A DNA stretch of 64,000 nucleotides from Escherichia coli (GTDB taxonomy: Bacteria; Pseudomonadota; Gammaproteobacteria; Enterobacterales; Enterobacteriaceae), in assembly GCF_050920415.1 (NCBI RefSeq), contig NZ_CP169309.1, one strand, 5' to 3'. This document shows, piece by piece, positions 5,395 through 36,146 of the stretch. A program made the translations under genes and the position numbers. The notes under the pieces were generated by a model that had not been told where the DNA came from, made no database searches, and was given only the letters and a program-made list of their open reading frames with translations. Numbering within the stretch: the stretch's first letter is position 1; each line of letters begins with the position of its first letter.

Positions 5395-6435
5395 TTATGC
5401 TCTGCTTGATTCAGTGATTTTGGAATCCTGCATTTTAGTAATCATACCCATAATTTTATGCCTAAGCTTTTCCATTGGGTTTTCGATTAGATAAAAACTT
5501 ACCGCCCCAACTAAGATTGATGCTACCATCGTTGCTATATACATATAGAAACTGATTCCTACGTACCACACACCCATTGCTAGAATCAGGAAGTGCCATA
5601 GGTATATAGAGAAGCTCCATTTACCAATGTAAGACATTAACGGTGTTGACAGAGCCCAAGCAAATACACCTTCTCCATAGCTCATTAGCAGAACAATGAG
5701 TCCAAATATTGGCGCATAGAAAATAAATTTGTTGAGAACCCATCCATCAGTAAACCCACCAGTTAACTTCCACATAACTTTAGGCAGTGCAATAAGCATT
5801 GATACAATAAAGAACAGGAAGGCTATATCAGACAACTCTTGACCAATTTTAAGGAAATTATCGTGATAGAGAAATGCTGCAATCATTCCGCAAGCAAACA
5901 GTGGGAAATACCACATCACCATTCCGCCATACGCACTATCCATCGCAGGGTACAATCCCTGTAGCAATACAGCCAGTGCGAAAATAAGGAATGCCGCTGC
6001 TTTTCCATTGTACACTTTTTGAATTGCGACACCAGCATACGCAAAGAATGGAAGTATGAAGTAGAATTTATACTCAATTGGTATTGTCCAGAAATGAAGC
6101 ACGGCCTCTTTCATCGTTATGATTGAGATTGCCGTATTCAAATCAAAATACCCAAAATATGAATACACGAGAACAGCTATTGCGAACACCGGAAGGATTC
6201 TCATTGTTCTTCCAAGGAAATAACTTAAAAGAGACCGCCAGGAAAATCCGGTAGAAATAAATCTACTGGTTAGCAAAAATGCGCTGAGAACAAAGAATAT
6301 CCAAACACCAAACTGTGAACTTCCACCAAGCATAACCTCATACTCATGAAAATATATTCCTGTAGCGTGGGCTATTATTACAAGGAATACCGCTATTGCC
6401 CTTAGTCCATCAAGAGACTTGATTTTACCTTTCAT
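5395..6435 (-). CDS. acyltransferase-3 family integral membrane protein, probable O-antigen acetyltransferase (lysogenic-conversion type)
   Basis: ORF 5395..6522; multi-TM product with LDGLRAIAVFLVIIAHA motif near N-terminus; AT-rich; last gene before att, as oac in Sf6. Confidence 0.7.
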   Translation of the reverse strand: MKGKIKSLDGLRAIAVFLVIIAHATGIYFHEYEVMLGGSSQFGVWIFFVLSAFLLTSRFISTGFSWRSLLSYFLGRTMRILPVFAIAVLVYSYFGYFDLNTAISIITMKEAVLHFWTIPIEYKFYFILPFFAYAGVAIQKVYNGKAAAFLIFALAVLLQGLYPAMDSAYGGMVMWYFPLFACGMIAAFLYHDNFLKIGQELSDIAFLFFIVSMLIALPKVMWKLTGGFTDGWVLNKFIFYAPIFGLIVLLMSYGEGVFAWALSTPLMSYIGKWSFSIYLWHFLILAMGVWYVGISFYMYIATMVASILVGAVSFYLIENPMEKLRHKIMGMITKMQDSKITESSRA

Positions 6436-6518
6436 TTCTTTCCCAGATATGGAGTGAACATCTGCGAAAATGTAGCACATTTCAAGGTAAACAAGAAGCG
6501 CATCCATGCGCATTTTCA

Positions 6519-8438
6519 TCACCCTGCCTTGGTGTATGTCCAGTTAAATGTTGTTGTTCCCTGGCTTGTGATGGTTACAATCCTTCCTGTCACTGTAAAT
6601 GATATCAACCCTCCTGACTTAAGCGGAGTTAAAGTAAGTGTTGTTCCGTCCCACATGGCAAGCTGAAGCGAAGAGAAATTTGTTCCACTGCTTTCTGCCC
6701 AAACGCTTATCAGGTACATCCCTTGGCTATTTGGCAGTTCAAACAACGTAGTTGCTACGTTAGCTGCAACAGCCTGAGTTCCTTTCGCTGTGTACACTGC
6801 TGGCAACTGATTACCTGCAGAGCTTCGTGATTCAACATATGAGCCTGAAGTTTGCGTCCCAGTTAATGAGCAGTCAGTAAATACTCCATTCCCTGTGCTG
6901 TAAGTTGATATTACAGGAGTCCCACCAGTCGGAGCCTTAAACCGGCATCCCTCAGCAATTATTTTTGCTGTTGAGTCTGTCAGCAATGTGTTTGGGTATC
7001 CAGAGCCAGTGTAGGTTATTGATTCGCTATCAAGGAAGCTATCGGTACTTGATTTTATGTTAACAATGCTTGTGCCTGTTGCAAAGATAAATGCTGCTGT
7101 CCCACTCCCCGTTGTTTGCATTGAGTTTCCATGCCCGGCCAATCCTGATATATGGGCAATAGTATCATTAAGTTTTATATACGACGCAGTAATTCCATTT
7201 GTATTTTTTATTATATTAGACTCACCATCATACCCTGTAATAGTAAGACACTTACATCCAGAAAAATATAACCCTGAGGAATCAAATGTATATTGCGACC
7301 CGTCAACTGTGATCTGGTCTCCTGCACAGTTTATTAGCTGAGGAGACAGGCAATTTACAACATACCATGCCTGTGCTGCATCCAGCACATAACATGTATC
7401 CCACTGTATTGTCGTTCCGTTCGCCTTATAGAAACCATGTGCAACTCTCCTCGCCCATACCTGGGTATACTTTGTTAGGTAATTTCCAGAGTCATCATAT
7501 ATGGCCCACCATGCACCATCAACCTCAACATTTTTAATGTGCATAACGCCTGGTGAAGTAGTTCCTCCATCAATTAGAATGCCAATTTTACCATCATTGC
7601 CAGTAGGTGATGTAGGGCGTCCTCCATCGTAAAAAATATAGACATTTTCAATATTTATTGTATTAAACGCTGCGTGGTAATGGAAACAAGCTATATTTCC
7701 TATTACTGCTATGAAAGTTTCCGGCCTATTTATGTTGCTGTTTGTTTCGCCATTTATTGTGCAGTTTGAATTCATCTCTATCGTTGCATTTACGAAGTAA
7801 GTTCCAGATGTCAATAATACATTCCGCCCTGTATTAATTGCGGCCTGTATGCCTGCATAGTCAAGAGACTGAGTTAGTGATGTTACGAATGGATAAACAG
7901 CCTGCGCCGCTGATAGTGTGGAGAATTTCTCGCTGAGTGGATGCAGAGTTCCGTCAGCTGTTGCACCGAAATCCTTGGCTGAAATGAAGTTGGTATTTTT
8001 ATCATGTTGAGTTAAAGCTATTGAGCCGATATATGGCTGCTTAACTGCAACTAGTGCATCTCCCATTCCATCAGCATCGCTTTCTAACTGCTGCTTAAAC
8101 TGATCAGGGTCATACTTCAGCACATTAGGAAAATAGAACTGCCGTGCACCATACGCATTATATACAGCCATAGAATGGCCTTGCACAGTTACGAACTTGG
8201 CAATCTGTCCGTTATATACAGGGTAACCAGCGGCGTTAATGATGATTGGTTGCGAAACAGGAACGTGAGAGCCGTCTTCGTTCTCTACATAAACCTGAAT
8301 CTGGTTTTCTGGATTTACTGGGTACGTGTCAATTTTACCGATATAAATTTTGCCATTGGCAACCGCTTTAAAAGAACGCGCCATAGTGAAGAGTTGCGAA
8401 GGCATGCTTACCACAACATTTGCGGTGATATCTGACAT
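6519..8438 (-). CDS. tailspike protein with P22-like N-terminal head-binding domain and divergent C-terminal receptor-binding domain
   Basis: ORF 6519..8486; from ATG 8438 reads [61 protein letters not shown]..., matching the P22 gp9 N-terminus; SD GGAG upstream. Confidence 0.85.
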
Positions 8439-8559
8439 TTCATTGCTCCAGACGAATGATATGATGCAACCATGATGTGATTGCATACCGAAATGGTACT
8501 ATTGAGTATTTATCCAGTAGGTTACGATGCCATTCCACCCAACTGGTGAGGCATCAAGG

Positions 8560-8820
8560 ATGTACAGCAAATACGACGAGGCGCAGTTTCACTTGAGACT
8601 TCCGCATGAACTCCACGCGAAAATTAAGCAGCGTGCGAAGATGAATAACAGGTCGCTGAACTCAGAGATAATTGCAGCGATTGAAGAATCATTGGATAAA
8701 CAAAGCTCTGCATCAGTTTACATTGACGATGCAGAGCGTATGGCAGAACAACAATCTGATATGGTTAAGAAAATGGTTTTTGAGACGCTCAAAGAGCTAT
8801 ATAAAAAAGACAGCAGCTAA
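8560..8820 (+). CDS. mnt: Mnt-like ribbon-helix-helix repressor
   Basis: ORF 8527..8820; MYSKYDEAQFHLRLPHELHAKIKQRAKMNNRSLNSEIIAAIEESL...DAERMAEQQSDMVKKMVFETLKELYKK resembles P22 Mnt; divergent from late genes. Confidence 0.7.
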   Translation: MYSKYDEAQFHLRLPHELHAKIKQRAKMNNRSLNSEIIAAIEESLDKQSSASVYIDDAERMAEQQSDMVKKMVFETLKELYKKDSS

Positions 8821-8840
8821 CTATCAGTTACGGAGGATTT

Positions 8841-8918
8841 ATGCAAAGAGATATGCTGAATATTGCGTTCTACATATTTGGTTTTTGCACGTTCCTGGTG
8901 TTTGCGAAGCTATTCTGA
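8841..8918 (+). CDS. 25-aa hydrophobic peptide (MQRDMLNIAFYIFGFCTFLVFAKLF), hypothetical
   Basis: ATG preceded by strong SD GGAGGA at 8832-8837; single predicted TM helix; below the ORF-track size cutoff. Confidence 0.35.
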   Translation: MQRDMLNIAFYIFGFCTFLVFAKLF

Positions 8919-10907
8919 CAACGCATCAGACTTGGCACCTTGAGTCAGGGCGTTAATGGCCTTTTGCGCCTGCTGCATGGCTTTCTCAAACGCTGTTGAT
9001 CCGCGTGGGGTGTTTGCCATTCGGAGCATTGCATTTCTGAATGGCTCGCTCTCATAGGCGCGAGTAAGAAGTCCGTAGCTTACCGCTGCGCCAGTTGTCG
9101 CCGGGTTCATTGCCGTCCCATATCCGATAATGAACGGGATGGTTTGCTGCCCTGTTGGTGTTGTTACTGCTGCTTTTGCAGCCTGCTGCGTGGATTGCAG
9201 GTAGTTTTTTAATCCTTTCAGATAAGCAGCGTCCTGCCCCTTAAATGTGATGCCAGTCTGGTTTTGCAGGATATTAAGCTGCCGAAGGAACTGGTCAGGG
9301 GATCCACCTGATTTCTCCATCGCCTTTCCAATGATGCCATTGCGCATTTGCGCCCTGCCAACACGACCAACTGAGTTATACAGCGTCTTAATTTCCGATT
9401 TGTTCTTGCTGAATAGCATGTTGTTGACAACTTCCGGCGTCAGGTCGCCTTTCATGAGAACATTCTTCAGCCTGGTATTCTTTAGTTTCGCCGCTTCGTC
9501 AGCGTAGACGGCATTGGCCTGCTGATATTTACGGAGAGTATCGTTGCCAAGATTCTGACCAATGGCACCATTGATATCGTCTGTCATTGCCTTGTAAACG
9601 CGCTGAATGGCAGCATCGGAACGGTTTGGTAACACTGATCGTTCCCCCTTCACGTCAATTCTGAACTGGCTGCGCAGATCGCTTAATTGCTTCAAATCCA
9701 GATTTACCGGACCATCAGGACCAGCATTGCGAACAAGCTCATCACGATAGGACTGAAGTTTTGAAATAGTCTCGTTATCGGCGACCTTACCAAGCTTCTG
9801 CAGGTTAGATATTTCTGTATCAATCTGCTGAATTGCTCGAGCAGGCTGGATATTGACTCCCGCCATTGCATTCTGAACCTGCTCAAGACGGTTCCCTGCA
9901 GCACGACGAATTCCTGATGTTTTCGCTTTAAGGCTGTCAATAACAACAGCTGGATCATACTCACCGAATTTATCAGCAAATCTCTGCACCAACTGGCTTC
10001 TCGCTTCCTGTTGCGTTGCTCTCATTCCGCTTGTGCCAGCCAGGGGGATATTTTCCGCTGTCGTCTGCGCCATTTTCCCGACGCGGGAAGTAGGCTGTAA
10101 CAGGTCTGTGGTGTGCAGAGGAACTCCTTCACGCTCTGCAAATCTGATAGCCTGCTGCGCTTCTGGCGCAATAGCACCACGAACGCCACGATAAGCAGCA
10201 CCTAATCCACGTCCGGCAGCGTTAATAGCACCGCCAGCCAGCACACCAACGCCTAAATCGGTGGCGAGTGCTTCCGCATCATCTTTCGCACTATTTGCAG
10301 CAAGTGATCCAACTGCGTTTTCTGCTAGAAGGCGAGTTGCTCCCTGAGCAATTCGACCTGCAAGTGTTGGTGCCTGTACCGCCGCTCTCTCAACGCCAGC
10401 AGGAGTGAGGTAAGGCAATGCTTCAGCAAATACCCTTCCCTCTGTCGTTTGTGGAGTCAGCGCACCTTGCTGAAGGCCAAAGTCCTGCTCTAATCCCTGC
10501 GTTGTTACTCGTGGCGCTGGTTGATATGTACCATAGCCAATACCGAGTTTACCGCCAGCCCAAGCCGCAGCGCTTGTTACAGCATCGGCAACTGATGCAG
10601 GTATGTTTGCCACGTTCACGCCAGCCTGCACCAGTCCGCGACCAGTTTCTTTCACGGCTTCACCAAGATCAGACATAAATCCAGTTTGCTGTGGTTGTTG
10701 CTGTGCTTCTGGTTGTTGTGTCTCCACTGGCTGCACAGATGGCAATGGATAGGCAGCATAGAAAGCTTGCTTAGCCTGCTCTGCATTTTCTCCGGCTTGC
10801 GGGGCCACGACTTCATTGAAGTATTGCTCCTGAGCCTGCGATTTTTGTTCTGGTGCTAACGCCTGATACTGTGGAGAGGCGATAACATCTTTCCATGCTT
10901 TAGCCAT
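8910..10907 (-). CDS. ejection (injection) protein, P22 gp16-like
   Basis: 665-aa ORF; position after gp20-like gene; Ala/Gly/Gln-rich composition typical of P22-like ejection proteins. Confidence 0.7.
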   Translation of the reverse strand: MAKAWKDVIASPQYQALAPEQKSQAQEQYFNEVVAPQAGENAEQAKQAFYAAYPLPSVQPVETQQPEAQQQPQQTGFMSDLGEAVKETGRGLVQAGVNVANIPASVADAVTSAAAWAGGKLGIGYGTYQPAPRVTTQGLEQDFGLQQGALTPQTTEGRVFAEALPYLTPAGVERAAVQAPTLAGRIAQGATRLLAENAVGSLAANSAKDDAEALATDLGVGVLAGGAINAAGRGLGAAYRGVRGAIAPEAQQAIRFAEREGVPLHTTDLLQPTSRVGKMAQTTAENIPLAGTSGMRATQQEARSQLVQRFADKFGEYDPAVVIDSLKAKTSGIRRAAGNRLEQVQNAMAGVNIQPARAIQQIDTEISNLQKLGKVADNETISKLQSYRDELVRNAGPDGPVNLDLKQLSDLRSQFRIDVKGERSVLPNRSDAAIQRVYKAMTDDINGAIGQNLGNDTLRKYQQANAVYADEAAKLKNTRLKNVLMKGDLTPEVVNNMLFSKNKSEIKTLYNSVGRVGRAQMRNGIIGKAMEKSGGSPDQFLRQLNILQNQTGITFKGQDAAYLKGLKNYLQSTQQAAKAAVTTPTGQQTIPFIIGYGTAMNPATTGAAVSYGLLTRAYESEPFRNAMLRMANTPRGSTAFEKAMQQAQKAINALTQGAKSDALSE

Positions 10908-12295
10908 TAATCACCCCATAGTGAAGAAAAGTTACTGCTGGCTGCTGGCTGTGATACCTGTGCAGGTTGAGATTGCTGCCGCTGAGATTTACCAACATTA
11001 ACGTTATATTGTTGGTTGTAATTGTTGGTGTATTCCTGAATCTCACGAATCGACTGCTGCATAGCCTCCGGGCTTGAATAGTCAACCTGCGGCATCCCCT
11101 GAAAATACATCTTCGCTTCTGCAACGGTGTTAATACCACTGGCACCCATGTCCCTTGCTGCCGCCACACCCTGATTCTGCATTCTGCCCTGAATCCGTTG
11201 TGCTGAGTTATATAACTGGCGCTGCTCTTTTCCTGTTAATCTGCTGCGAACATCAGCACCAATTGCTGGATTACCTGCACCGCCTGTCATTCCTGTCATG
11301 AAATCGAGAGCAGAAGCGTCTGCATTTGCGATCGCGTCGATATCCTTCTTCATGGCATAGTTTTGTGCTGATGCAGACGATGTTGCAGGCGCAGCGATTG
11401 AACTGGCAGGGACACGAACCATATTCCCCTCGTTGTCGATGCCTTCGTAGAACGCATTAGCCCCAGCGCCATGAAGCTTCCCGCCTACCGTTACAGTTCT
11501 GCCATCTGATAACTGAACTGTACGCTCATCATTCCCAGCGATTCCTCTTGTTGACGCTCGCTGCATTGCCAAATCCTGACCTCGTCGCGCAGTAGAAGAA
11601 GATAAGTCCTGACCGCGCATCGTGATGTTCTGGCCTCGTGCTGTTAGCGCCTCGCCAGCCTGATTGCTGCGGATTGTCTCTGCAAGTTTTCCGCGATCAA
11701 TCTCACGACCAGCCATCTTGTCCTGAACATTGAAGTAATCAATTGGACCAAGAGCAGCCATCCCAAGGTGATCAACAAACTCACCAAATCCTGAAGGATT
11801 CTGCTGATACATCTGAGCAACGTTGTTAGGGTCAACACCTACGCGAGTCAGTTCCTTGGCGTTGTTTTGCAGCCATGATTGCATCGCTTCTGGAGACGAT
11901 GCCGCAAGGCGAGCGCCAGCCGCTAAGGTGCCGATAGAATTACGCTGGTCTTCATCAATGAATCCCATGCCTTTACGAACGGATTCAATCTGGTCTGGAT
12001 ATTGAGTAGCCAACTGACGCAAAGCACCGCGATCACCAGACGCATAAGCATTAGCGTATGCCTGCTGAAATTCTTTCTGCCGCTGAGCCTGCTTTTCCTG
12101 CTGAAACACCCCCGCAATACCTGAAAGGCCTTGCAAAGCAGTCAGCCCAACATTGTTAGCGCCTGAACGCTCAATATCATTGTTCTGCCTGATAAGCTGA
12201 AGCGTATTGCCGATGTCATTTACGCTCGGAGCGTTTGAGTTGACGCCGCCGATACCAGCCAACAATCCGCCGTTTGTTCCTTGCCAAGTAGCCAT
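10907..12295 (-). CDS. ejection (injection) protein, P22 gp20-like
   Basis: 462-aa [20 protein letters not shown]...; synteny 14-7-20-16. Confidence 0.7.
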
Positions 12296-18722: not shown

Positions 18723-20889
18723 TTATTGAGGTGTCTCGGCTACTCCGCCGGAGGGGATTTGAACTTGACGCATAAGATTCGCGAAATCCATGCGTTGTGA
18801 ATGAGTCTGGTCTGCATCTTTAAGAAGCAGCTCAGCGTTAGCACGAGCATCTTTGCTGCGCTGTTGCTGGAATTGACCTACGAGCTTGAGGTACTCACGC
18901 AGTTCTGCCTGCTTGTCGAGGTCCATATTGTTGAAGATTTCTGCAATCTTCGCGGCGTTGAGTTGGTTTTGGGCTTCAACCTTGGCGGCTTCAACCTGAA
19001 TCTGCGCCTGTTGGTTCTCTGCCTTGATCAATTCAGCCTGACCTTGCAGAAGGATACCCTGCGCCTGAATTTGCTCTGCTGATGGCTGCTGCGGCTGCTG
19101 TTGCGCCTGTTGCACCATCTCCATCTCTTCAGGTGTTTCTGGTTTCTTCAGCCACATCATCACCAGTTGCTTGTTCGCGTACTCTCGCATCATCTCGAAC
19201 GCCTTTACCGTCAAGCAGCGTGAAGTATTGCAACATCAGCATCTGGAACTCTGGAGTACCTTGCGGAACCTTGGTGAGTAACTCCTGAATCTCTGCGCGG
19301 TTCTGTTCCTTCATACTCTGGAAGGATGGTCCAACGTCGGTATAGCACTCATAGCGACCGCGAATGTCGTTGAGTGTGACCACATTACCGGACTGGTAAT
19401 CTACAACTTGCGCGTAGAGTTGAACGTCTTTCTCGCTACCATCTTCAAGTGTCAGCGTTACATGACGAGGAACGTCATAAATATCATTGACCATTGAAGC
19501 ATAAATCTCGCCATCACGTCGCATTGCGGTAGCAAGGTTATCCTGAAACACGTATGTCTCAAGGTCTGCCCGCATGTTCAGTTGATTGACGGTATCGAAA
19601 GCGACCTGAGAGTTTGCTGCCTGCGCATCCACACCAAGACTAGCCACCTCTTTCACTGCGTTGGTGGCAGCCTCAAGCATGTAAGCGTTGGCTTGCGGCA
19701 CTTCAGGGTTTTCCATGTAGGAGATTGGACCAATCGGCAGGTCGTTGCCGTTTTCATCGGTCCTGTTCTGCAGATAGTACGGATAGTCATCATTTCCACC
19801 GTACATGTATTCGTAGCCTTCGATTTGCTCAGGGAAGAAGGTCGGTTTCTTCTTCGGTGAACGAGCAACAATATCGGCGTTGAATGACATGATCATGTTA
19901 CGAAGGCGTTGACCGTCTTTCGTCAGCCTTACCACTCCTTCGTAGCACTCCTTGTCACCAGCGAATGACCATTCGCCATATACTGGAACGATTGGAATAT
20001 GCTCTCCGGCTATCTTCTCGCGGTCTTTCAGTATCTGCGTGCAGGTGACGATCGACTTATACACACGCCGACGCTTCACCTTGCGCTCTGCTACCTTAAT
20101 GAATCCACGATTAGCCAGGTCGTCGATGACGTCTTTGATATCCTGCTGGTAATAGCTGACCGGCTCACCTGTCAGCGGGTCGCGGTAGATGAAGACTTTC
20201 TCTTTCTTCTCTTCGACCTCGTAATACTCAGCGACGTAGACGACATCATTCGATACCCACGGAAACAGCCATGTATCGTTTGGATTCTGGAAAGATGGCA
20301 GCGTGTCCGGATCAATACCGTAATCCTCTGCGAACTCTTTCCAGCCATTGCGCGACAAGGCGTTAATCACCGTGCAGTGCTTAGCGTCGCTCTTATCCAT
20401 CTGCTTGCTGTTGGCGTCCCATATGACGTGTGAGCAGGCTTCATGGATTGGCAGGCGTCGGATTACCTGATTGTTGCTTGTTGGATCGTTGTCTTCGTAC
20501 TGCGTGACCAGACGCCATGCACCAACGCCTGACTCTATCTGCTCACGAACGCCAACGTTAACGGCAATTTTTGCCGTATTATGGCGCATATCAGTACGAT
20601 ACATCCCCATCAGCACATCGGCAGCATCAGGATTAGCGCCGTCTTTTGGTCTGAAGAGAACATCGATAGGGTTCCGGCGCATCTCTGCGACCAGCTTCCT
20701 GACCACCGGGCGAACAACATCGAATTGTCCGCGATATTGCAGGGTGGTGTAGTTTGATAGCCAGTCATCCCATTGCGACACTCGGCTAAAATACAGGTCA
20801 TTTGTCGCCTCGGTTCTGGCTTCATCGCTCGCCATCCAGTCTGCGTCAAACTTACACAGAATGGAATTGAGTCTGTTTTCGTCGGCCAT
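18723..20889 (-). pseudogene. portal protein gene (P22 gp1-like) split by a +1 frameshift near 19197
   Basis: ORFs 19129..20889 (586 aa) and 18723..19214 (163 aa) overlap by 86 nt in different frames; junction GKGV|[10 protein letters not shown] is restored by removing one nt; span 2167 nt = 3n+1. Confidence 0.7.
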
Positions 20890-26841: not shown

Positions 26842-27128
26842 GGCTTAATCTTCCCCTCCTTCAGCAGTATCGCCTGCGTCCTTATCACGCCTTCGAGGTG
26901 GTAAAGTCTGGCGTCTTTGTTGTCGAGAATCCTTGTGCGTCGGTCGATCTCCGCGTGGCAGTCACTACAAGCCCATGCGCCGATCAGGTCGTCAGGTTTC
27001 ATTCCCGTTCCGCAAATTCCAGCCATCCGGTAATGTGCCAGAACTGTAGTTTCAGGATTGCCATTGCATACGCCGTAAATACGTACCTGGCATTCTCTGT
27101 TGCGCGCTTCTTTGCGTAGGTTAGCCAT
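26838..27128 (-). CDS. DUF1364 (YbcO-like) Cys-rich nin-region protein
   Basis: 96-aa ORF MANLRKEARNRECQVRIYGVCNGNPETTVLAHYRMAGICGTG...CSDCHAEIDRR resembling DLP12 YbcO. Confidence 0.7.
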   Translation of the reverse strand: MANLRKEARNRECQVRIYGVCNGNPETTVLAHYRMAGICGTGMKPDDLIGAWACSDCHAEIDRRTRILDNKDARLYHLEGVIRTQAILLKEGKIKP

Positions 27129-27850
27129 TAAGCAGCCTCCCCTGTTACTTTCAGCATTCCGTTATCGAGCAGCTTTCTGGTCAGCCACTGTTGACCACGC
27201 CCGGTGATTTTTGTGGTGAACGATATCTGTATTCCGTGATTTGTGTTGACCGCTGTTTCTTTCACTGTGAAATAGCCGCGATCCATATATTCCTGCATTG
27301 GCACATTGCGCCGGGAACCTGAAGCAATAAGGATTTTGTGATCACGCATCCACGCAAACAGTTTGTTTGGACCAATACCGACAACCTTTGCAAAGTTTCC
27401 AATCAAAATTCCGCTGGCCTCGCCAACGCGATCGGCAAACTCAACTTTAGGTGCGGCAATTGCGAGCTGGTTTTCCAGTTGCATTTTCTGCTCAGCAAGA
27501 TCAGCAGCAAGGCGCAACGCTTCTGGTAGCGTTTTGGGGATATTAACCGCAGTTTCCTCAAGCTCTCGCCAACGGTCAACAAGACGAGCGGTGAATTCCG
27601 GCGACAACTGGGCAACAACGACAATACTGTCTCGCTTACCTTGTTCGCCTTCGAAGACGTAATGCTCGTACTGAACATTGAACCCTAAGTTATTGATTCT
27701 TTCGGAAACCTCAATTTGAGGAAGCCGGATAACACCATTTTTAGCCAGCGTTTCGATGGTACGTTTCACATTGTCTTGACGCTTACCCACCAACTCAGCG
27801 ATTTCAATGCTTGTCATTTTGATAGCATTGCCATTTATTAACTCATTCAT
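27128..27850 (-). CDS. Roi/antirepressor-like DNA-binding protein (Rha-type N-terminus, KilAC-type C-terminus)
   Basis: 240-aa ORF in nin region; assignment by composition and position. Confidence 0.45.
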   Translation of the reverse strand: MNELINGNAIKMTSIEIAELVGKRQDNVKRTIETLAKNGVIRLPQIEVSERINNLGFNVQYEHYVFEGEQGKRDSIVVVAQLSPEFTARLVDRWRELEETAVNIPKTLPEALRLAADLAEQKMQLENQLAIAAPKVEFADRVGEASGILIGNFAKVVGIGPNKLFAWMRDHKILIASGSRRNVPMQEYMDRGYFTVKETAVNTNHGIQISFTTKITGRGQQWLTRKLLDNGMLKVTGEAA

Positions 27851-34932: not shown

Positions 34933-35820
34933 TCAGGCTGCCAGATCATTGTTTCCGATGGAAGCATAATAAGCTTTTTCTGCTTCTGCCGGAGGAGTAT
35001 GGCCCAGCCTTCCCAGCAATCGTCGATTGTTATACCAGTCCACCCACGTGAGTGTGGCCAGTTCCACTTCTGCACGGTTTTTCCAGCTCTTACGGTGTAT
35101 TACCTCCGCTTTGTAAAGACCATTGATGCTCTCAGCCATCGCGTTGTCATACGAGTCGCCTGTACTCCCTGTTGATGCCAGCAGTTTTGCTTCTTTTAGT
35201 CGCTCCGTATAGGCCAGTGACACATACTGAGAGCCTTTATCGCTGTGATGGATGGTGCCAGACGGACGACGGGCCCACAACGCCTGCTCCAGCGCATCCA
35301 GCACGAATGTCGTTTCCATAGACGATGAGACCCGCCACCCCACGATGTATCCGGCAAACACATCAATGATGAACGCCACATAGACGAAGCCCTGCCATGT
35401 GCTGACGTAAGTAAAATCAGCCACCCACAGCTGGTCAGGACGTTCTGCCACGAACTGACGGTTTACGCGGTCACCTGTGGCAACGGTTTTCCGGCTGACG
35501 GTAGTGCGGACCTTTTTACCCCGGAGAACACCGGCAAGTCCCATAACCGCCATGAGGCGCGCCACTGTACATCTGGCCACCCTGATTCCTTCCCGTAACA
35601 ACTGACGCCAGACTTTACGCACACCGTACACCTGATGATTTTCATCGTATACGCGCTGTATCTCTCTCTTCAGCCAGTCATCGCGCTGCGCACGGGCACT
35701 GCGTTTATCAGGATGATGCCGCTGCTGCTGACAATGGTAATACGTTGACGGGGCGATATGCAGTTCACTGCATACCGGTCCGACCCCGTACTGCTCACGC
35801 AGCTTATCCAGCAGTGGCAT
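34933..35820 (-). CDS. IS3-family transposase OrfB (DDE integrase domain)
   Basis: 295-aa ORF with DDE-type catalytic region; overlaps orfA end as expected for programmed -1 frameshift fusion. Confidence 0.85.
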   Translation of the reverse strand: MPLLDKLREQYGVGPVCSELHIAPSTYYHCQQQRHHPDKRSARAQRDDWLKREIQRVYDENHQVYGVRKVWRQLLREGIRVARCTVARLMAVMGLAGVLRGKKVRTTVSRKTVATGDRVNRQFVAERPDQLWVADFTYVSTWQGFVYVAFIIDVFAGYIVGWRVSSSMETTFVLDALEQALWARRPSGTIHHSDKGSQYVSLAYTERLKEAKLLASTGSTGDSYDNAMAESINGLYKAEVIHRKSWKNRAEVELATLTWVDWYNNRRLLGRLGHTPPAEAEKAYYASIGNNDLAA

Positions 35821-36146
35821 TATTTTTTCCAGAGGCGGTCGAACTCCGCCTTCGCAAAATAAGCGGAAGCCTGGCGAAGGATATCGTTACTGCGGCGCAG
35901 TTCACGATTTTCACGTTCCAGCTCTTTCAGACGCTGACGTTCAGCGGTGGTGAGCCCACCATCACCGCTCCCGGTATCCCTCTCATGCTGGCGAACCCAG
36001 ACACGCAGAGTCTCTGGCGTACAGCCAATCTTTGGAGCAATGGAACAAATTGCCGCCCATTGTGAGTCATATTCGCCCTGACTTTCCAGAACCATACGAA
36101 CTGCGCGTTGACGGACTTCGGGGGAAAAACGAGTATTTTTAGTCAT
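35820..36146 (-). CDS. IS3-family transposase OrfA (HTH)
   Basis: 108-aa [60 protein letters not shown]... Confidence 0.85.

Follow-up and report, generated by a model that had tools for sequence, protein, structure and literature searches.

A conserved 25-codon gene next to a lone mnt repressor gene in an Sf6-like prophage of Escherichia coli, and its possible role in superinfection exclusion

What is encoded between the DNA-ejection gene and the tailspike gene of an Sf6-like prophage (Lederbergvirus) of Escherichia coli, and what could it do for the lysogen? The locus lies in a stretch of 64,000 nucleotides (nt) of contig NZ_CP169309.1 (assembly GCF_050920415.1), referred to below as the window, in which the late genes of the prophage are found on the minus strand. 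On the opposite strand, between these two late genes, are located a homologue of the P22 repressor gene mnt and, directly after it, an open reading frame (ORF) of 25 codons, which is called pep here. The arrangement is as follows.

6519-8438, minus strand: tailspike gene, homologue of P22 gene 9 and Sf6 gene 14 (ORF list)
8560-8820, plus strand: mnt homologue of 86 amino acids (aa), between gene 16 and the tailspike gene
8832-8837, plus strand: Shine-Dalgarno (SD) sequence GGAGGA of pep, followed by TTT and the ATG (a gap of 3 nt, or 4 nt counted from GGAGG)
8841-8918, plus strand: pep, 25-codon ORF MQRDMLNIAFYIFGFCTFLVFAKLF, putative single-helix membrane peptide, between gene 16 and the tailspike gene
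8910-10907, minus strand: gene-16 homologue (P22 gene 16, Sf6 gene 13) for a DNA-ejection protein (ORF list and annotations of relatives)

Judged from its substitution pattern, pep is conserved and under selection at the protein level. It is a previously unrecognised, widespread micro-gene: it is annotated in no database record of the relatives examined, has no PHROG match, and its exact sequences do not occur in a collection of 15 billion proteins. Annotation pipelines miss it because it falls below their length cut-offs. For its function we propose an operon of mnt and pep that is expressed in the lysogen, with pep encoding a very small exclusion peptide of the inner membrane, directed at the incoming gene-16 product (gp16). 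The probability of this reading is put at about one half.

The first-pass annotation of this DNA had pointed to a 25-codon ORF with a strong SD sequence and to a single membrane helix predicted from it, and both observations hold. The mean Kyte-Doolittle value of residues 5-25 is 1.89, with 21 hydrophobic residues behind the polar cap MQRD, which is compatible with one membrane helix. What had escaped notice is that the last 9 nt of pep overlap the 3' end of the convergent gene 16, whose last three sense codons lie in the overlap. pep begins 20 nt past the end of mnt and no terminator is found between the two genes, so that in lysogens it would be made from the mnt mRNA.

Relatives were sampled with the gene-16 C-terminus as the anchor, and 80 IMG/VR loci were fetched in addition to phage and E. 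coli records. The ORF is intact in every relative examined (~150 loci), and each time the gene-16 homologue is convergent with it and the two overlap at their 3' ends. The 25-residue type was found at 87 loci as 39 alleles, all consisting of ATG, 25 codons and TGA without insertions or deletions, and 284 of 5426 complete E. coli genomes carry it; no disrupted copy was seen among the most divergent E. coli matches checked. This type holds its position at the gene-16 end across at least four upstream contexts: window-type mnt, a gene for a 161-aa lipoprotein (VSe13, Gally, 720R6), a tailspike leader of only 95 nt (Sf6) and other sequence (locus L060). In the contexts other than mnt, homology to the window begins one base before the pep ATG.

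A 23-residue type is carried by ST64T, L and ST104 (MNRDLLNFAFLIFGIVVGRLLFA) and by BTP1 (MERDLLNFVFLIFGLVVGKLLFA), and also by HF4s and Klebsiella phiKp_30; diverged homologues of the same length were found in prophages of Ca. Erwinia dacicola, Kluyvera, Citrobacter and two Escherichia species. In IMG/VR this type was searched for with a degenerate pattern covering pep residues 3-14. All 49 matches (49/49) have an ATG six bases upstream and run to 23 codons wherever the locus is long enough, one being cut by the locus end. No homologue was found away from gene 16, since all of the 49 matches with readable sequence beyond pep abut the gp16 end. The window peptide is identical to the BTP1 ORF at 9 of the first 14 residues. 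The family has the motif M-x-R-D-x-L-N-x-A-F-x-I-F-G and overlaps the gene-16 stop by 9-12 nt. An SD sequence GAGGA, GGAGGG or GGAGGA with a 3-nt spacer (TTT; TGT in ESNIH1) before the ATG is found at the ST64T, BTP1, HF4s, Erwinia, Kluyvera, Citrobacter and Escherichia sp. ESNIH1 loci. Sf101 has a window-type mnt with a different gene-16 end and no pep.

Evidence that pep is a protein gene comes from the way in which the sequence varies. Eight diverged homologues show a mean pairwise synonymous divergence (pS) of 0.64 against a non-synonymous divergence (pN) of 0.18, and the variable columns at codon positions 1, 2 and 3 number 11, 6 and 17 of 18 (p = 7e-4). Within single residues the codons are exchanged: Arg3 appears as AGA, CGA and CGT, Gly14 as three GGN codons, Gly18 as all four GGN codons and Val17 as all four GTN codons. 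These patterns make it very probable that pep is a real protein gene.

Three other identities for the ORF were considered and rejected. An RNA element in place of a gene is not indicated, as folds of 8815-8930 are no better than shuffled sequences on either strand (z = -0.8 and -0.95) and no Rfam match was obtained in 8000-9400. A remnant of sieA would be expected to resemble the C-terminus of P22 SieA, and no such similarity was found. The P22 ORF named orf25, also of 25 codons, is unrelated in sequence and located elsewhere in the P22 genome.

The functional proposal derives mainly from a comparison with the Salmonella prophage BTP1. Its strongly expressed lysogenic transcript STnc6030, detected by RNA-seq and Northern blot, is antisense to the tailspike gene's 5' end and the 3' end of gene 16, and was labelled non-coding as none of its ORFs exceeds 60 aa (Owen et al. 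2020, PMC7067206). A plasmid with STnc6030 gave total exclusion of BTP1 and none of P22, while the yield and induction of the resident prophage were unaffected; constitutive plasmid expression of the fragment was tolerated, with healthy lawns and normal spontaneous phage titres (PMC7067206). Four escape single-nucleotide polymorphisms (SNPs) of BTP1 fall within 36 bp of the gene-16 homologue, and all four are non-synonymous (PMC7067206). The supplementary coordinates in D23580 are 402294-404261 for STMMW_03891 and 403942-404727 for STnc6030 (PMC7067206). According to the published coordinates and primers, the BTP1 pep occupies positions 408-479 of the cloned 787-nt STnc6030 fragment, and it is the sole ATG-initiated ORF of at least 15 codons with an SD sequence inside that fragment. 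It lies in the same slot and on the same strand as the window unit, with the same SD spacing and the same overlap with the gene-16 stop. The BTP1 locus differs in having no mnt, a promoter inside the tailspike gene, and a 23-residue peptide with a GxxxG motif, as compared with 25 residues and a different C-terminal half in the window.

The interval of the escape SNPs corresponds to codons 583-595 of BTP1 gp16, ILGIGTVTNPALV. In the gp16 alignment P546 of P22 gp16 falls into this stretch, with G532 eight columns upstream; both P546 and G532 are positions of escape from the P22 exclusion protein SieA (Leavitt et al. 2024, PMC10883804). The corresponding segment in the window is the following.

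9093-9131, minus strand: gp16 residues 593-605, IIGYGTAMNPATT, window equivalent of the BTP1 escape stretch and of P22 P546; proposed target of pep

The type of this gp16 segment and that of pep (23 or 25 residues) co-segregate 143:0, and in HF4s a gp16 with an Sf6-like body and a BTP1-like tail occurs together with a BTP1-like pep; both observations agree with the proposal, though weakly. Three findings fit a protein that targets the ejection protein of the incoming phage better than antisense decay of a late mRNA: prophage induction is unaffected, single amino-acid changes give escape, and the escape site coincides with that for SieA. The odds that pep has an exclusion function are put at about level, and an even chance is given to the peptide, rather than the RNA, being the active agent of STnc6030-type superinfection exclusion.

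The first-pass annotation had offered three guesses for the peptide. An immI remnant does not fit, because pep is present in Sf6, BTP1 and HF4s, which are without a moron, and belongs with the gene-16 end and not with mnt. A toxin is disfavoured by the tolerance of the fragment. Exclusion is favoured by the homologous ORF inside the STnc6030 fragment.

In the proposed mechanism, the window would contain a short two-gene unit embedded in the late operon and probably expressed from the prophage. The Mnt tetramer probably binds a TACC-N5-GGTA site at 8484-8502 next to the weak promoter of mnt; in the absence of arc and ant, Mnt would be left with the task of adjusting the amount of its own mRNA. 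This transcript would run through mnt and then pep, and onward antisense into gene 16, possibly as far as 9186-9210. Inserted as a single helix in the inner membrane, the peptide would keep superinfecting phages with a matching gp16 from delivering their DNA. It may engage the hydrophobic, Gly-rich C-terminal stretch of gp16 (window residues ~591-615, with the matching segment at 593-605), acting like P22 SieA at one-seventh of its size. We infer operator binding, co-transcription, membrane insertion and, most of all, the role of the peptide as the excluding agent.

SieA is the closest functional parallel. It occupies the same slot as pep, directly after gene 16 on the opposite strand, and is an injection blocker expressed from the prophage, with escape in the gp16 C-terminus at the aligned position. 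However, SieA has ~160 aa and several membrane helices as against 23-25 aa and one helix; escape from it also requires changes in gp20; and it acts against phages that carry ejection proteins of the Sf6 type, whereas P22 was not excluded by the STnc6030 fragment. pep is not a member of the SieA family, having no similarity to P22 SieA and being far too short for the motif FxRYPxEAxxFNK of SieA types A-C. In the comparison with P22 and Sf6 that had been recommended for this region, the P22 slot holds sieA and not pep, and Sf6 has pep without mnt.

The first gene of the unit is better known. By its domain content the window Mnt is a true member of the Mnt family: Pfam Arc (PF03869) matches residues 7-49 (1.4e-14) as the ribbon-helix-helix DNA-binding domain, and Repressor_Mnt (PF11423) matches residues 57-82 (2.2e-13) as the C-terminal coiled-coil tetramerisation domain. 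The protein falls into PHROG 795, and its closest solved structure is that of P22 Mnt (1MNT, residues 3-76, 5e-19), followed by the tetramerisation domain 1QEY (1.8e-8). A pseudogene in related prophages had been named as a refuting outcome; this is not so, as mnt is intact at 60 of 61 loci, and its 31 synonymous and 29 non-synonymous variants include no stop. The DNA-binding half is invariant among the alleles. In the alignment the base-contacting β-strand residues are Gln9, His11 and Arg13, in place of His6, Asn8 and Arg10 in P22 Mnt, and a different operator is expected from this difference.

The spacer between the tailspike gene and mnt (8439-8559, 121 bp) contains no ORF resembling arc or ant, and tblastn searches with P22 Arc, Ant and SieA gave no match at the window locus or at ~85 related loci. 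The earlier statement that mnt diverges from the tailspike gene without arc or ant is confirmed in this way, and both genes are missing from every sampled relative with a window-type mnt. As arc and ant are missing from this spacer and Rfam gave no match, the locus does not belong to the P22 immI system (mnt-arc-ant-sar). The contrast with P22 immI had thus been drawn correctly, but the arrangement is not unusual. Lone mnt genes, for which the term "ant morons" was coined, are known from ST64T, ST104 and Para1 (Villafane et al. 2008, PMC2629481), and in phage L a lone mnt lies between genes 16 and 9 likewise (PMC8022706). The lone mnt is real, and it is a known and ordinary arrangement that adds little. 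The small ORF is not mentioned in either of these papers. Among these phages ST64T and L have a homologue of pep as well, at the end of gene 16. Between mnt and pep of ST64T lies a lipoprotein gene (100 aa) on the other strand, so that pep must have its own promoter there; in the window pep directly follows mnt.

Relatives with longer mnt-tailspike spacers were considered as possible carriers of hidden arc or ant genes, and this was rejected, as the inserts are HNH endonuclease genes. In six IMG/VR relatives (loci L041, L050, L057, L067, L074 and L079) an HNH-type homing-endonuclease gene of 166-179 aa is located exactly after the fifth codon of the tailspike gene. At these loci a second copy of the tailspike gene's first 15 nt stands beside the mnt leader, and a new tailspike start is used farther on.

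The elements of transcription that can be recognised around the unit are listed below.

8464-8486: palindrome ATGCAACCA-N5-TGATTGCAT in the tailspike leader (repeat search)
8484-8502: candidate Mnt operator CATACC-GAAAT-GGTACTAT, with the core TACC-N5-GGTA at 8486-8498
8502-8528, plus strand: putative mnt promoter, with -35 TTGAGT at 8502-8507, a 15-nt spacer and -10 TACGAT at 8523-8528
8526-8555, plus strand: hairpin GATGCC-N18-GGCATC in the mnt 5' leader (repeat search; fold z = -2.1)
9186-9210, plus strand: terminator-like hairpin with a T-run inside gene 16 (consensus scan; 1 found against 1.0 expected, weak alone)

A search of 8439-8559 for a palindromic Mnt operator had been advised. The best palindrome of the intergenic region, at 8464-8486, was rejected as the operator: Sf6 carries a related element although it is without mnt, and the palindrome is missing from VSe13-type loci with the same Mnt DNA-binding domain. 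By its distribution this palindrome is assigned to the tailspike leader. The candidate operator, with TACC-N5-GGTA at 8486-8498, sits where O-mnt of P22 does, directly before the conserved CTATTGAG, in an upstream block homologous to P22 Pmnt/O-mnt (P22 GGTCCACCGTGGACCTATTGAGAATATAG, window CATACCGAAATGGTACTATTGAGTATTTAT), and the operator cores are in register: GTCC-N5-GGAC in P22, GACC-N5-GGTC in ST64T and TACC-N5-GGTA in the window. Two lineages of the mnt module are wholly different to the left of CATACC and conserved to the right of it; since conservation begins there, the candidate operator would mark where the mobile mnt module ends on its outer side. The 19-mer has no second copy in the window, and its core occurs twice against 0.28 expected, the other match, at 19386, lying inside a coding region. 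The candidate is symmetric in just 4 bp per arm, and TACA replaces TACC in 2 of 19 alleles.

Relative to P22, then, the window has the same two-domain protein, the same gene direction away from the tailspike side and a homologous promoter/operator block (...CC-N5-GG... before the conserved segment). It differs in having no arc, ant or sar after mnt, in two of the three contact residues, in the core TACC instead of GTCC, and in the loss of the -35 box of P22 Pant. The putative mnt promoter matches in position Pmnt of P22 (TTGAGA-17-TATCAT, annotated in NC_002371) and that of ST64T (TTGTGG-17-TATGAT), and on this positional homology it is taken as a candidate, probably a weak one. All window-type loci have a spacer of 15 nt (8508-8522), as against 17 nt in P22, ST64T and VSe13-type loci, which may make the window-type promoter much weaker or dependent on something further. 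The leader hairpin at 8526-8555 is 100% conserved between the compared lineages. The hairpin with T-run at 9186-9210 lies ~290 nt past pep, and the mapped 3' end of BTP1 STnc6030 ~308 nt past its pep; by this analogy it is possible that 9186-9210 is the 3' end of the mnt-pep transcript. In BTP1 itself a hairpin (z = -3.4) is found at ~467-510 of the transcript, counted from the mapped 5' end, and it is not conserved in the window.

As regards the agent of exclusion, the published explanation is that the RNA itself acts, by pairing as an antisense with the incoming late mRNA at the 3' end of gene 16 and destabilising it; pep would then have another role or serve to fine-tune the transcript. In its favour, the RNA was detected by RNA-seq and Northern blot and the escape SNPs fall in the gene-16-complementary region, while P22, which has no sequence similarity in the antisense region, is not excluded (PMC7067206). 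The model is repeated in a 2025 review, and the literature searched still treats STnc6030 as an antisense RNA. Nevertheless, one SNP in a perfect duplex of ~320 nt should hardly impair pairing, and overexpression of STnc6030 left the yield of the induced prophage intact though the late mRNA target is identical. The SNPs all alter gp16 residues, in the stretch aligned with the SieA-escape site, and selection on the amino acids of pep is left unexplained. In addition, the main Northern species of ~480-500 nt, if begun at the mapped 5' end, would end near pep and the hairpin, short of the SNPs at ~650-687. Taken together, this makes RNA-mediated exclusion unlikely. The peptide could also be a membrane peptide of the type I toxin or abortive-infection kind, which the convergent late transcript or a low level of translation restrains and which kills or depolarises the cell on a trigger. 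Ibs, ShoB and TisB form a class of small hydrophobic type I toxins; pep is similar to them in size and hydrophobicity, and like them it faces a complementary transcript, the late operon transcript being fully antisense to it. Against such a role, the BTP1 fragment with pep and its SD sequence is tolerated under constitutive expression, promoter, Rfam and terminator scans found no dedicated small antisense RNA or promoter for one, and the strict tie of pep to one family of gp16 tails is easier to reconcile with a specific partner than with general poisoning of the membrane. A toxin is accordingly regarded as very improbable.

It is hardly credible that pep is a meaningless open frame retained by the conserved flank of gene 16. 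A short, unannotated ORF that is absent from PHROG and from the protein collection would be expected in that case, but synonymous sites near saturation, a peptide kept across genera, three-base periodicity and switches between codon families would not, nor would the conservation of start codon, SD sequence, length and stop. For Mnt, the main role might not be autoregulation. It could silence a residual Pant-like promoter directed towards the tailspike gene, or it could control in trans the ant genes of other phages, superinfecting or co-resident, that have the same operator, as a second immunity without an ant of its own. P22 Mnt represses Pant, and transcription from the region affects tailspike expression (PMC2629481); the location of the operator between mnt and the tailspike gene and the invariant DNA-binding half of Mnt would agree with this. 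On the strand towards the tailspike gene, however, the best promoter-like match is poor (TGGAAT-17-GATAAA, found by eye) and the scan called none, and beyond the coding-region core match at 19386 the window holds no second operator. The Ant/Roi-like gene at 27128-27850 in the nin operon has no operator-like site nearby, and no relative with the window Mnt type has arc and ant adjoining mnt. Such a role of Mnt is doubtful. A second copy of the operator before an ant gene was looked for separately, and none was found in the 64-kb window or near the Ant/Roi-like gene.

Several observations weigh against the proposal that mnt and pep form a lysogenic operon for an exclusion peptide. The BTP1 fragment carries both the peptide and the RNA, and either could be the agent; the escape SNPs fall, as the antisense model predicts, in the part of STnc6030 complementary to gene 16. 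The co-segregation of pep type and gp16 tail can be explained by plain linkage, as the two are within ~200 nt and their ends overlap. The C-terminal half of the window peptide is unlike that of BTP1 and is without the second Gly of GxxxG, so the function may not transfer. Among the close 25-residue group there are 17 synonymous and 32 non-synonymous changes with no stops (omega ~0.5), as compared with 81 and 14 in the neighbouring gene-16 codons, which is a moderate constraint. Residues 476-609 of P22 gp16 are dispensable for membrane association in vitro (Leavitt et al., PMC10883804), and this weakens the case for a helix-helix contact within the membrane. As to expression in this prophage, the STnc6030 promoter of BTP1 (TTGAAT-17-TTCAAT, inside the tailspike gene) was considered as the window promoter and rejected, as it is not conserved there, and the consensus scan made no call at the putative mnt promoter with its 15-nt spacer.

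Other observations concern the region upstream of pep in the relatives. Phages without a moron have a conserved TATAAT ~22 nt before the pep ATG. Just upstream of it, between the tailspike start and pep, there is a long imperfect inverted repeat (~GCAAAGCCGCACAAG-N6-CTTGCGCAGCGTTGC) conserved across genera (loci L097-L100 and L093/L094); in Sf6 a different hairpin, CCGGACA-N10-TGTCCGG, takes its place. The inverted repeat could be a structure of the late mRNA before the tailspike gene or a control site of the pep promoter. The 161-aa predicted lipoprotein (MKKSLLIIPLLLAGC..., PHROG 6067, function unknown), which has a weak resemblance to the Cor signal peptide, is encoded between mnt and pep, directly before pep, at loci L005, L008, L087, L089, L152, L153 and others; the slot seems to collect envelope proteins. 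A more distant gp16 with a different C-terminus is found in Yersinia aleksiciae (L101), which has no pep; the slot holds another ORF of ~42 codons, VLEIASFVALAAIVYLIRQVG..., which has a GGAGG site and encodes a hydrophobic helix at the N-terminus.

The remaining neighbours complete the description of the prophage.

5395-6522, minus strand: O-antigen acetyltransferase gene
10907-12295, minus strand: gene-20 homologue

The true start of the tailspike gene is the ATG at 8438 (MSDITANVV...), preceded by GGAG. Its N-terminal head-binding domain is conserved throughout the related loci, and in relatives the gene is annotated as tailspike or head-binding protein. The gene-16 product is 98% identical to Sf6 gp13 in a full-length alignment. 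Its homologues vary in length: 665 aa in the window, 797 aa with a lytic-transglycosylase domain in E. coli S56 (L001) and Klebsiella phiKp_30 (L092), and 911 aa in Sf101 (L002). The C-terminal ~150 residues of gp16, together with pep, are common to the window and the S56/phiKp_30 types and are not shared by Sf101. An Ant/Roi-like anti-repressor gene (PHROG 63, 1e-97) is located at 27128-27850 on the minus strand, inside the nin region, where it overlaps the upstream small gene; the prophage is thus not wholly without an ant-type protein. A transposase (PHROG 157, 9e-140) is encoded at 34933-35820 on the minus strand, and probably also at 35820-36146 on the same strand, in the early-left region beside an N-like antiterminator gene, which suggests an insertion sequence (IS) element inserted into the prophage.

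The meaning of pep for this phage family can be given at two levels. Sf6, ST64T/L, BTP1 and ~5% of complete E. coli genomes carry an overlooked conserved gene. If the peptide is the agent, the published RNA-mediated phage exclusion would need reinterpretation, and pep would define a new, very small class of injection blockers; to our knowledge it would be the smallest phage exclusion protein described. A probe of 23-25 residues hitting a defined segment of gp16 would then give a handle on how the ejection proteins of P22-type phages cross the inner membrane. Cognate pairs of pep and gp16 tail would exist in a large share of the P22-like prophages of Escherichia, Shigella, Salmonella, Klebsiella, Citrobacter, Kluyvera and Erwinia, including Sf6, so far regarded as moron-less at the position between gene 16 and the tailspike gene.

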